This document shows positions 49,341 through 52,118 of a stretch of DNA of 52,118 bases, one piece after another (within the stretch, counting starts at the first letter, position 1; the number at the start of each line of letters is the position of its first letter). The position numbers and the translations under genes were made by a program. The notes beneath the pieces are model-generated. The model ran no database searches and was not told where the DNA came from. It saw only the letters and a list, made by a program, of their open reading frames with translations. Source of the stretch: a bacterium. Its GTDB lineage: Bacteria; Patescibacteriota; Minisyncoccia; Minisyncoccales; CG1-02-41-26. The DNA lies in NCBI GenBank assembly GCA_030619905.1, contig JAUXAO010000003.1, forward strand, positions 1 through 52,118, read 5' to 3'.

Positions 49341-49604
49341 ATGAGCTATTGGATCAAAGAAACAATTCATCAAGCCGCTCGTGAACGAAAAGTTCTACGA
49401 ATTGTTTATATTGAAAAAGATGGTAGTAACGAAGGGTGGCGATATGTCGAGCCCTACAGTTTTAGTAATGATGAAGGTGAAGATGCTTTATTCGCTTGGG
49501 ATAGAGGAAAGAGTGGAATTAGAAGATTTGTATTAAGTCGTATTCAACAAATAGAGGTTACTGATGAATCGTATTATTCTCGATATTCAATAGAAATTTT
49601 CTAA
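49341..49604 (+). CDS. Stand-alone WYL domain protein
   Basis: LRIVY...WRYVEPYSF...LFAWD...IRRFVLSRIQQIEVT; no HTH. Confidence 0.82.
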   Translation: MSYWIKETIHQAARERKVLRIVYIEKDGSNEGWRYVEPYSFSNDEGEDALFAWDRGKSGIRRFVLSRIQQIEVTDESYYSRYSIEIF

Positions 49605-49606
49605 AT

Positions 49607-50482
49607 ATGTCAAATCAAAAATTTAAATTTAAATTCAGAGGGAAAGTAATGGTGATTATTGATTGGACAAATGTGTACAATTGGTTTCCGGATCTTGGTT
49701 GGAAAATCCCCCCGCCGAAACTCTTTGATTATTTACGTTCATATCCAGAAATTCAAGATATAAACTTCTATTTTGGAATTGAACCAAACAAACGAAAATC
49801 GGTTGATTTTCATAGAGAGATTGAATTAATCGGCTACTCTCTTAAAAATAAAGAAGTAAAATGGGTTCCGGCAGCGCTAGAGACAACTTCGCATTTCAAA
49901 GAAGTTATTCAAAATCTATTTGAAGTTTTAGAAAATGTTAAAAATACCAATTCAAATATTTCAAATCAACTTTACGAACTTTCTAAAAAATTAAATGGAT
50001 TACTTAAGATATCTTTTGGTAATAAAAAAATAATCTCTGATTTTACTGATAAAAAGCACTTGAATGAGATTTATAATTTAATTGAAGAGTTGGATCAAGA
50101 GTTAAAAAAACTCAATATTGATATCGGTGAACTCCAAATAAAATTAAAAGAACCAGTAAAACGAAGAAAATGTGATTTTGACGTGGAAATTACAAAGGAT
50201 GCGCTGAATAACCTAGATAAATTTGAAACCATCTTAATCTTTAGCGGTGATGGAGATTTTGCAACATTAGCTGAGGATTTAATAATTAATAAAAATAAAA
50301 AGGTTATTGTTGTTTTTGCGCAAGGCCATATTGGGAAAGAATACGAATCTCTAAGGCTAAAATTAGAAGAATTGAGAAAATTACGTCATCAAGGGTTAGG
50401 GGGATTATTTATATGCAATGTTAAAAAATTACAAGAGTTTATTGGAAATAAATATCCCCAGAGGTTAATCTCTGGGGCGTGA
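49607..50482 (+). CDS. NYN (LabA/DUF88, PIN-like) nuclease with a coiled-coil insertion
   Basis: IIDWTNV, KCDFDVEI, IFSGDGDF acidic motifs; about 95-aa heptad-rich insert. Confidence 0.85.
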   Translation: MSNQKFKFKFRGKVMVIIDWTNVYNWFPDLGWKIPPPKLFDYLRSYPEIQDINFYFGIEPNKRKSVDFHREIELIGYSLKNKEVKWVPAALETTSHFKEVIQNLFEVLENVKNTNSNISNQLYELSKKLNGLLKISFGNKKIISDFTDKKHLNEIYNLIEELDQELKKLNIDIGELQIKLKEPVKRRKCDFDVEITKDALNNLDKFETILIFSGDGDFATLAEDLIINKNKKVIVVFAQGHIGKEYESLRLKLEELRKLRHQGLGGLFICNVKKLQEFIGNKYPQRLISGA

Positions 50483-50524: not shown

Positions 50525-50533
50525 TTATCCACA
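50525..50533 (+). promoter_or_regulatory. DnaA box
   Basis: Perfect TTATCCACA. Confidence 0.7.
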
Positions 50534-50585
50534 TTAGATTATGTCTCAAAACCTTAACGAAAATTGTGGAAACCCTCTTTAAGGT

Positions 50586-50828
50586 TTAAAACAGCCCCGA
50601 CAGAGAGGCATTATGAGATACCTCTAAAAGCTCCCGAATTTGTTCCTGAAAACTAGGTTCTAGACCGAGTAAGGAAGGTATACGGTTAACTTCTACAGTA
50701 AATTTCTTATCACGACTGATAAAATGAACATAATGAGACCCACTTCCATGTTCAGACAAATAAAAATCGTGGTCTTTGAGAAAATCCACGACATCCTTAA
50801 ATGTCCAATTTCTTAATCTTCTAGCCAT
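50586..50828 (-). CDS. hicA: HicA-like mRNA interferase toxin
   Basis: WTFKDVVDFLKDHDF...GSGSHY (GSH motif); atypical C-terminus. Confidence 0.65.
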   Translation of the reverse strand: MARRLRNWTFKDVVDFLKDHDFYLSEHGSGSHYVHFISRDKKFTVEVNRIPSLLGLEPSFQEQIRELLEVSHNASLSGLF

Positions 50829-50830
50829 AT

Positions 50831-51175
50831 TTAAGTATAAACTAACTCTTGTTTTACTGGGAAAGGTGCTAGAGAAGACGTCCTTTTTTGAAGAAGTTTC
50901 TCAACCTCTCTCAGAAGTTTAGCTGTATAATATTTGTCCCAATACTTTTTAAGAGCAGGGCGATTAAGCAGTTTGTTGCTCAAATTTTCTTTTCTTACCA
51001 CTTCAAGATGACCAAAAGCAGCCTCTTCTAGGTTTTCCAAAAGTTCTTTAGGGCTTTCTCCTTCTTCAATGATATTTAATGTTAAACAAACCCCAACAAA
51101 TCGTTTTTCGTCAGGATAAACAAGAAATTCAAATACTCCTCTTTTTTTTGTATTCCAGATTTTTACGTTCTTCAT
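50831..51175 (-). CDS. hicB: HicB-like antitoxin
   Basis: FLVYPDEKRFVGVCLTLNIIEEGESPKELLENLEEA; start moved from 51217 to 51175 because the promoter lies at 51189-51217. Confidence 0.6.
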   Translation of the reverse strand: MKNVKIWNTKKRGVFEFLVYPDEKRFVGVCLTLNIIEEGESPKELLENLEEAAFGHLEVVRKENLSNKLLNRPALKKYWDKYYTAKLLREVEKLLQKRTSSLAPFPVKQELVYT

Positions 51176-51188
51176 ACTTCTATAATGT

Positions 51189-51217
51189 ATTATAACTCTT
51201 AAGTGATTTAAATACAA
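51189..51217 (-). promoter_or_regulatory. sigma70-type promoter of hicBA
   Basis: Minus strand TTGTAT, 17 bp, TATAAT. Confidence 0.65.
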
Positions 51218-51218
51218 C

Positions 51219-51227
51219 TGTGGATAA
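51219..51227 (-). promoter_or_regulatory. DnaA box
   Basis: TGTGGATAA (perfect TTATCCACA on the minus strand), 1 nt upstream of the hicB -35. Confidence 0.7.
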
Positions 51228-51301
51228 CTTTTAAAAATTAAGTAAGCAAAAGCATTACCTCTATCTGGTTTTGTTTAGCTTATAAGCAAAAGCAAAATTG
51301 C

Positions 51302-51901
51302 TCAGCAAGTTTGTTCAGACAAAAACTGTTCAAGTTGAAGTGTGATGGTTTCAATCTTCTCTGAAATTTCATTGATTTTTTCAGCCACTTCGTCTAAGGC
51401 GGGCTGTGTTTCTTCCGAATCCTTTCCTTGTTCAGTTATTTGAGCTAAAGTTGCTTTTAATTCTTTTAATGATAATTGTTGAACCTGAATTGAAATTATT
51501 GTAACTTTCTTGGAAATTTCATTGACTTGCTGGGCTATTTCTTCCAATGTGAGTTTCCTTTTTTCTGGAAGTGTGGTTGTTTCTTGTCCTAGGACATCTT
51601 TGGTTTTTTCAAGTGATAGGGCTTCCTCGGTTAATCCTTCAGTTATGTCCTGAGTTTCTGCCTCAAAAGACATCTGGTCTGATACAGAAGCAAGCTGAGA
51701 TTCTTTAAGCCCTTCTTCTCCGAGATCTATCCTTAATGTAAAATTAGAAAAGTAATCTTTAATTTTATTTATTGCTCTTATTCTTTCATCTTGATGTAAG
51801 TAAAAATATCCTCCAACCATTACTAAAACAAGAAAGATGGCTAAGAGAATTAAATTTCTTCTATTTATTTTTCTGTTATTAGTAAAAAGATTTCTATACA
51901 T
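51302..51901 (-). CDS. Membrane-anchored coiled-coil hypothetical protein
   Basis: N-terminal TM; two similar heptad segments. Confidence 0.7.
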   Translation of the reverse strand: MYRNLFTNNRKINRRNLILLAIFLVLVMVGGYFYLHQDERIRAINKIKDYFSNFTLRIDLGEEGLKESQLASVSDQMSFEAETQDITEGLTEEALSLEKTKDVLGQETTTLPEKRKLTLEEIAQQVNEISKKVTIISIQVQQLSLKELKATLAQITEQGKDSEETQPALDEVAEKINEISEKIETITLQLEQFLSEQTC

Positions 51902-52040
51902 AAAAATTAAATTTATATTTTATGACCTTTGTCTTAATATTTAATTATAAATGAGCTAGAGCATATGGGCATTTTTTATGTCCGCCCTGTATATATTTAC
52001 TAATCTTATGTCCAAAGCCTTTTTTAATCAAGTCCTACCA

Positions 52041-52049
52041 TGTGGATAA
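52041..52049 (-). promoter_or_regulatory. DnaA box
   Basis: TGTGGATAA, perfect. Confidence 0.7.
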
Positions 52050-52056
52050 CTTACTC

Positions 52057-52085
52057 TTGAGAAGTATATTAATTAGATATATATT
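52057..52085 (+). promoter_or_regulatory. sigma70-type promoter pointing out of the window
   Basis: TTGAGA, 17 bp, TATATT. Confidence 0.5.
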
Positions 52086-52118
52086 GAAGATGTGTTTGTG
52101 GGACGTCAGTCCTATTCG

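Follow-up and report, generated by a model that had tools for sequence, protein, structure and literature searches.

The stretch of DNA analysed here (the window; positions 1 to 52,118 of contig C4, which is 119,645 bp long) belongs to a Patescibacteria genome of 617 kb with 33% G+C in 10 contigs, labelled G000. Close to the end of the window lie a WYL gene with an NYN nuclease gene, a hicBA-like gene pair and the beginning of a small RNA gene, and each of the three is accompanied by a promoter that carries a perfect DnaA box, the 9-mer bound by the replication initiator DnaA. A sequence-only reading of this DNA had reported three such boxes, and all of them were present: TTATCCACA occurs at 50525-50533 on the plus strand (Box 1) and at 51219-51227 (Box 2) and 52041-52049 (Box 3) on the minus strand. 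Each is a 9/9 match to the high-affinity DnaA-box consensus TTATCCACA, and a search of the whole window found no further perfect copy. The boxes are separated by gaps of 694 and 822 bp with genes in between. A fourth site at 50565-50573 (plus strand), described earlier as a one-mismatch box, reads TGTGGAAAC; it has two mismatches against the strict consensus and one only against the relaxed form TTWTNCACA, it has no adjoining promoter, and it is missing from the corresponding locus of G015, a genome from a different genus of the same family.

Box 1 reads TGTGGATAA on the minus strand and lies 7 nt 5' of the -35 element of promoter P1 (50490-50517, minus strand), which was identified by the promoter scan and from the sequence. 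P1 consists of TTGACA (50517-50512), a 16-nt spacer and TGaTATTAT (-10 at 50495-50490), so that the arrangement is TGTGGATAA-atccctc-TTGACA-16-TGaTATTAT, with the box-to-(-35) geometry exactly as previously described. The promoter scan gave P1 a score of 11/12, with an extended -10, and P1 is directed into the 3' end of the NYN gene. Directly after P1, an 8-bp GC hairpin on the minus strand (50456-50477; CCCCAGAG-N6-CTCTGGGG) is followed by the U-rich tract AUAUUUAUUU, and the product of P1 would therefore be a short antisense RNA against the final codons of NYN. The hairpin probably forms the body and the terminator of this antisense RNA and also acts as a bidirectional terminator for NYN. 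The genes on the plus strand, WYL (49341-49604) and NYN nuclease (49607-50482), were assigned by Pfam (WYL, 1.6e-13; NYN, 1.1e-13) and by PADLOC matches to WYL and NYN.

Homologues of the WYL-NYN pair numbered more than 200, mostly in Patescibacteria. The NYN protein of G015 is 59% identical, and its locus shares the hairpin, the ATCACGCCCC start region, the promoter and a perfect box (3 nt from the -35). In G015 the NYN stop codon precedes the hairpin, yet the nucleotide sequence of the hairpin is conserved. Using the alignment query, we collected 26 NYN loci (L103-L128) from named Patescibacteria lineages and sought the box within 200 nt past the stop codon. A box with at most one mismatch was found in 15 of the 26 loci, and a perfect one in 7, against a chance expectation of about 0.06 per locus. 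Most of the loci retain the promoter, and the promoter and the ATCACGCCCC region are conserved across genera; where the box is present, its usual position is 2-9 nt 5' of the -35, and one locus, L109, has it within the spacer. The WYL-NYN pair thus recurs widely in Patescibacteria as a module with a convergent promoter, the conserved GCGTGAT start region and a GC hairpin just behind the NYN stop, and it looks like a nuclease with an antisense-RNA partner.

Box 2 (TTATCCACA, minus strand) lies 1 nt 5' of the -35 of the hicB-like promoter. Its promoter, P2 (51189-51217, minus strand), was read from the sequence and comprises TTGTAT (51217-51212), a 17-nt spacer and TATAAT (51194-51189), giving TTATCCACA-g-TTGTAT-17-TATAAT at 13 nt before the hicB-like ATG at 51175. 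The 1-nt distance between box and -35 given by the sequence-only reading was thus borne out, with a correction as to the -35: TTGTAT agrees with TTGACA at only 3/6 positions, and P2 did not pass the promoter scan because its -35 is too weak. The assignment of P2 is therefore based on the perfect -10 and the abutting box. The genes downstream on the minus strand are hicB-like (50831-51175, 114 aa) and hicA-like (50586-50828, 80 aa). Family support for the pair is weak: the hicA-like protein matched PF07927 below threshold (E = 0.099), and the gene downstream of homologues likewise gave a weak PF07927 match. Pfam gave no match for the hicB-like protein, and its sole family support is that two homologues are named 'RNase H-like HicB family' by JGI.

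The box of P2 was retained in homologous loci. Close homologues come from metagenomic contigs, with protein identities of 61-92%; in three of their four distinct sequences the box directly adjoins the -35 (L098-L100 are identical and were counted as one). In L096, L097 and L098-L100, the position of Box 2 is kept, perfect or with one mismatch, although the DNA 5' of the box differs; in L096 conservation starts exactly at the box, and the DNA 5' of it is unrelated. Boxes with at most one mismatch were likewise present at the promoters of more distant homologues, in G096, G120, G156 and G105. An 11-mer, GCTTTTGCTTA, is present as a direct repeat on the minus strand, 26 nt apart (51244-51281), between the hicB-like promoter and the stop codon of a gene for a coiled-coil membrane protein of 199 aa.

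Box 3 reads TGTGGATAA on the plus strand, 7 nt 5' of the -35 of promoter P3 (52057-52085, plus strand; 10/12 in the promoter scan). P3 consists of TTGAGA (52057-52062), a 17-nt spacer and TATATT (52080-52085), and in the whole element, TGTGGATAA-cttactc-TTGAGA-17-TATATT, the box-to-(-35) geometry was also as reported earlier. Apart from the box, a 'ctc' and the -35, P1 and P3 have nothing in common, and the idea of a duplicated promoter cassette was rejected. P3 drives no open reading frame (ORF); its target is a conserved structured RNA, which the sequence-only reading had not recognised. Its 5' part lies within the window (52088-52118, plus strand), its core extends past the window end to C4:52150 (L002:5088-5150), and its terminator hairpins lie outside the window at about C4:52240-52276 and 52281-52318. 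The core (C4:52088-52150) folds into a 9-bp closing helix with two hairpins, a three-way junction, for which RNAalifold gave 20 pairs with 2 compensatory and several G-U changes. Blast matches were obtained in G020 and G017, and the covariance model R1 scored 86.8 bits; the structure string of R1 was off by one column and its matches rest mainly on sequence, and the structure was taken from RNAalifold. No credible Rfam family emerged when either the 15-kb region or just the small-RNA stretch was searched, and ARAGORN found neither a tRNA nor a tmRNA.

Among 151 genomes of the order, representing 121 genera, the small RNA was present in six only, and in addition in G020. Five genomes other than G000 have, convergent with it, an unannotated gene for a 155-159-aa protein; this protein matched no family in Pfam or PADLOC, and G000 does not have it. 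In both G000 and G020 the small RNA is an orphan that lacks this gene and has a 3' extension of about 130 nt before the two terminators. A box-like element adjoins the small-RNA promoter in five of seven genomes: TGTGGATAA-N7 in G000, TGTGGATAA-N18 in G020, TTATTCACA abutting TTGACA in G017, and, inside the spacer, TGGGGATAA in G115 and TGGGGATAG in G156. The G020 contig (L006, G020:C70) has, at about 1596-1660, a single perfect box flanked by two divergent promoters. On one strand it belongs to a lexA promoter, TTATCCACA-N9-TTGACT-17-TATAAT, whose gene encodes Peptidase_S24 and the LexA DNA-binding domain, and on the opposite strand it lies upstream of the small RNA.

The distance between box and -35 was then considered across the lineage. 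In the 151 genomes, we scanned for a perfect box 0-25 nt 5' of TTGAC and used the reversed pattern as a control. The pattern TGTGGATAA-N(0-25)-TTGAC occurred in 97 genomes compared with 15 for the control, and the opposite orientation, TTATCCACA before TTGAC, occurred in 90 compared with 12. For TGTGGATAA, the spacing among the matches listed was 5-8 nt in 81 of 147, with a mode of 6 and a second rise at 15-19 nt; for TTATCCACA, among the matches listed, it was 1-2 nt in 36 of 148 and 8-10 nt in 61 of 148. The classes are thus about 3-4 bp wide (mode ± 1-2 bp), they shift with the orientation of the box, and for one orientation the distance between them is about one helical turn. In a sample of 101 genomes from the phylum, the peak was broader (3-8 nt in 38 of 69), and 42 genomes had a match compared with about 21 for the control. 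The positional link between box and -35 suggested by the sequence-only reading is therefore real, with sharply peaked, orientation-specific classes, and the identical geometry of Boxes 1 and 3 is an instance of a general rule rather than a local coincidence. These data define a promoter class across Patescibacteria in which one DnaA-box 9-mer stands at a fixed, orientation-specific distance from the -35.

The window boxes (7, 7 and 1 nt) and the other promoter boxes of G000 fall within the preferred spacing classes. The latter are found at rpmH/dnaA (16 nt) and at two genes for helix-turn-helix (HTH) membrane proteins (9 and 10 nt). The window holds about half of the promoters of this class in the genome. 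The two HTH-membrane genes, at C7:180965 and C7:181683, are paralogous, and their boxes, TTTTCCACA and TTATCCACA, lie 9-10 nt 5' of the -35, offsets that correspond to the second preferred class of their orientation. Because a fixed distance to a promoter recurs across related species, the boxes are better understood as gene-control sites than as parts of an origin. The earlier proposal that they regulate the adjacent promoters gains comparative support from the recurrence of each box-promoter pair in other genera and from the order-wide spacing classes, which suggest a regulatory role.

Genome-wide, 11 perfect boxes were observed, compared with 4.6 ± 2.4 expected from order-3 Markov simulations. 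Eight of the 11 lie outside ORFs of at least 70 aa, while the intergenic share of the genome is about 8%. The occurrence of three boxes within 1,525 bp had a probability of 0.003 when uniform placement was assumed and of 0.01 when 8 of the 11 boxes were restricted to intergenic DNA, and the earlier estimate of about 0.02 expected boxes per 1.5 kb was about right. The three-box cluster is moderately unusual, and the intergenic bias of the 9-mer is the stronger signal. Elsewhere in the genome, boxes are densely grouped at one place only, upstream of mraZ.

We next considered which protein reads the box. DnaA of G000 (dnaA, C7:140602-141969) is complete, with the Pfam domains DnaA_N, Bac_DnaA and Bac_DnaA_C (N-terminal, AAA+ and C-terminal HTH). 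When its domain IV was aligned with 1J1V, the structure of the E. coli domain in complex with a DnaA box, and with 8BTG, the RPRQ, SxP and DHTT motifs were found to be retained; we take these to correspond to the base-contact residues R399, P423 and D433-T435 of E. coli. The same box is associated with dnaA itself: among 28 relatives it lies 90-200 nt 5' of dnaA, perfect in 9 and with at most one mismatch in 19, most of the 28 have one to three further boxes in the dnaA-dnaN spacer, and the dnaA-rpmH spacer of G000 contains one perfect box. That DnaA can activate or repress transcription from promoter boxes is established (PMC8203912). Because the window sites are isolated 9-mers without phased partners, they suit a monomeric domain IV better than an MraZ ring, and this favours DnaA, which we infer to be the probable reader of the box. 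On balance, we are inclined to regard the three boxes as operator-type sites of three separate promoters, most likely read by DnaA as a transcription factor.

Several observations weigh against this interpretation. At the position aligned with the histidine of E. coli VLHAC (presumably H439), G000 DnaA has a tyrosine, and the putative origin of G000, the dnaA-dnaN spacer, has no perfect box. P1 is near-consensus with an extended -10, and an activator should be unnecessary there. Some homologues of the NYN and small-RNA promoters have their box within the -35/-10 spacer. Finally, the same 9-mer occurs in the repeats of the mraZ leader, where MraZ would be expected to bind, so a second protein may read it.

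The last point leads to an alternative in which the boxes are real operators read by MraZ, or by another monomeric factor with DnaA-box-like specificity, and we consider this a possible but rather doubtful explanation. Patescibacteria have few transcription factors, and about 27 of 30 relatives carry an array in the mraZ leader, ATGGA-N5-ATGGA-N5-GTGGATAAAT-GTGGGGATAAC-N10-CTGTGGATAAC, whose TGG(A/G) period of 10 nt between promoter and start codon corresponds to the classical position of the MraZ operator; a distal pair, TGTGGATAAnCTGTGGAAAA, with an 11-nt period is also present in the leader. MraZ oligomers need several repeats, as known from work in E. coli and B. subtilis, and an MraZ operator would comprise at least three direct repeats with a 10-11-nt period; a phased array exists in G000 only at mraZ on C3, whereas the window sites are single 9-mers without a phased TGG repeat 10-11 nt away. 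Moreover, the full 9/9 DnaA consensus is conserved in the boxes, beyond the GTGG core, and the same box occurs at dnaA promoters and in dnaA-dnaN spacers. In favour of MraZ, its sites in Mollicutes are direct repeats of AAAGTG[T/G] (PMC8475190). DnaA, for its part, binds near the dcw/ftsL promoter in B. subtilis (PMC8203912), and in view of this precedent the mraZ boxes may themselves be DnaA sites. In G000, the mraZ leader (C3:98968-99245; L004:3968-4245) contains four TGG(A/G) repeats, whose period is exactly 10 nt, and a distal TGTGGATAAccTGTGGAAAA pair; the repeats overlap perfect and near-perfect DnaA boxes, and about 27 of 30 relatives share this layout.

The remaining explanations concern the clustering rather than the promoters. 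An AT-rich genome would yield about five boxes at random, but a chance grouping without function is very improbable given the low probability of the cluster (0.003-0.01), the enrichment in intergenic DNA, the conservation of all three boxes in other genera and the order-wide spacing classes. A cluster of perfect boxes in AT-rich DNA at the edge of the window would also be expected beside a chromosomal origin, which the sequence-only reading had tentatively placed just beyond the window end. That placement was refuted, and we give the idea that the boxes mark or adjoin the origin practically no credence: dnaA and dnaN are on C7 at 139-142 kb, the cumulative GC-skew minimum is at about 116-150 kb of the same contig, and the skew maximum (terminus) is on C3 at about 52 kb. 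On C4 the skew is positive from 24 kb to the contig end at 119 kb, that is, for a further 67 kb past the window, and no AT-rich unwinding element or box array was found at or beyond the window end. The location of the skew minimum and a dense box array beside an unwinding element, by which an origin would be recognized, thus both point away from the window boxes. The dnaA-dnaN spacer on C7 is the likely oriC of G000; this spacer (C7:140384-140601) is very AT-rich and contains three (A/G)GGATAA repeats, one TTTTTCACA and no perfect box. A locus for the titration or recycling of DnaA, like datA, DARS or the DnaA-box clusters (DBC) of Bacillus, with the promoters incidental, is unlikely as well. 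The region does hold 3 of the 11 perfect boxes (27%) in 1.5 kb, and any high-affinity box passively titrates DnaA, but the gaps of 694 and 822 bp are too long for cooperative oligomers, and no cluster of weaker boxes was found around the three. The hicBA-like and NYN modules keep their own box in unrelated genomic contexts, and the three modules are not adjacent in relatives; a titration locus would comprise at least four close boxes acting together at a conserved locus, whereas here three boxes were found and they are not syntenic. Since the boxes travel with their modules elsewhere and the modules are non-adjacent in relatives, the cluster is best read as three adjacent box-bearing modules, neither an origin nor a dedicated DnaA sink. 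Three accessory, toxin-antitoxin-like modules, namely an antisense hairpin RNA, a hicBA-like pair and an orphan small RNA, would have come to stand side by side in a variable island.

If DnaA is indeed the reader, a single monomer would use its domain IV to bind the 9-mer and would contact RNA polymerase stereospecifically; such a contact is suggested by the narrowness of the spacing classes. The spacing pattern has the character expected of a protein facing RNA polymerase, like the class II activators, rather than of simple occlusion. Transcription would then be tuned by the amount or the nucleotide state of free DnaA. The upstream box positions and the weak -35 of P2 beside its box fit activation, whereas the near-consensus P1 and the boxes located in the spacers of homologous promoters fit repression, and for this reason the sign of control may differ between promoters, as at E. 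coli nrdAB. A more far-reaching and decidedly speculative version, which we think probably goes too far, is that DnaA is also a main transcription factor of Patescibacteria through a promoter code of one R1-type box at one of four fixed -35 offsets, and that this code has been taken up by mobile toxin-antitoxin and defence-like modules (WYL-NYN with its antisense RNA, hicBA-like pairs, the three-way-junction small RNA), so that the synthesis of their antitoxin-type RNAs and proteins would depend on free DnaA. If this were true, replication arrest, or the hijacking of DnaA by a phage or plasmid, would turn the modules on.

Known systems resemble this arrangement in part. E. coli nrdAB likewise has high-affinity 9-mers just 5' of a sigma-70-type -35; DnaA activates or represses it depending on its level and bound nucleotide and has been proposed to stabilise or exclude RNA polymerase (PMC8203912). 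In contrast to nrdAB, the window promoters have a single box each, at fixed, orientation-specific distances that are repeated across more than 100 genera, and they are known from sequence; their targets are toxin-antitoxin-like and small-RNA modules instead of nucleotide synthesis. DnaA autoregulation, mioC and the DnaA regulons of B. subtilis and Caulobacter also use boxes outside oriC as transcription-factor sites, and as in dnaA autoregulation the dnaA/rpmH spacer of G000 and its relatives bears the same box. In those regulons, however, the number and position of boxes vary, and no stereotyped promoter class is known to have been described. With datA and DARS of E. coli and the DnaA-box clusters of B. 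subtilis, the window shares several high-affinity boxes outside oriC within 1-2 kb, but its boxes are 0.7-0.8 kb apart, each with its own mobile module and promoter, and are not syntenic. The MraZ operator of the mra/dcw promoter has the GTGG core in common with the box, and in this lineage the 9-mer forms the repeat units of the mraZ leader, whereas the window sites are isolated single copies far from mraZ and have no partners in 10-nt phase.

Class II activator sites, such as those of CRP and FNR at -41.5 and of lambda cI at OR2, are similar in placement: the site abuts or nearly abuts the -35, with a tolerance of only ±1 bp, further classes lie about one helical turn away, and the -35 beside the box of the hicB-like promoter is poor. 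The window box differs in being asymmetric and monomeric, with centres at about -41.5 and -49.5, or -46 and -57, depending on orientation. A further difference is that the alpha subunit of G000 RNA polymerase lacks the C-terminal domain: RpoA (C2:70152-70973) has 273 aa and comprises the N-terminal domains and a lysine-rich tail of about 48 residues. This domain (PF03118) was undetected in 89 of the 151 genomes. Its loss as the cause of the promoter architecture was rejected as a strict link, since G015 and G017 have both the domain and box promoters.

Patescibacteria, also known as the Candidate Phyla Radiation (CPR), are uncultured bacteria with genomes of 0.5-1 Mb and very few transcription factors, and to our knowledge almost nothing is known of their gene regulation. 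In about 60% of the 151 genomes, a DnaA-box word stands at set distances from the -35; this amounts to a readable regulatory code and gives a testable hypothesis, that the replication initiator doubles as a promoter-specific regulator in this group. In the window the carriers of the code are mobile toxin-antitoxin-like and small-RNA modules, whose activity it would link to the state of the replication machinery. Full-text literature searches for DnaA boxes in promoters of Patescibacteria turned up no paper, and DnaA-type promoter control with a stereotyped geometry, carried by modules of these kinds, would accordingly be new. A cluster of DnaA boxes does not equal an origin in these genomes, which bears on automatic oriC prediction.

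Besides the three box-bearing modules, the island also has genes for an ECF-type sigma factor, a DeoR-like HTH protein and an HNH nuclease just past the window. Also past the window, at C4:52360-52381 (L002:5360-5381), there is a perfect palindrome with 8-bp arms, AGCTGATA-N6-TATCAGCT, that is operator-like; it directly follows a TTGACT-17-TATTAT promoter and lies ahead of the gene for a 102-aa membrane protein.

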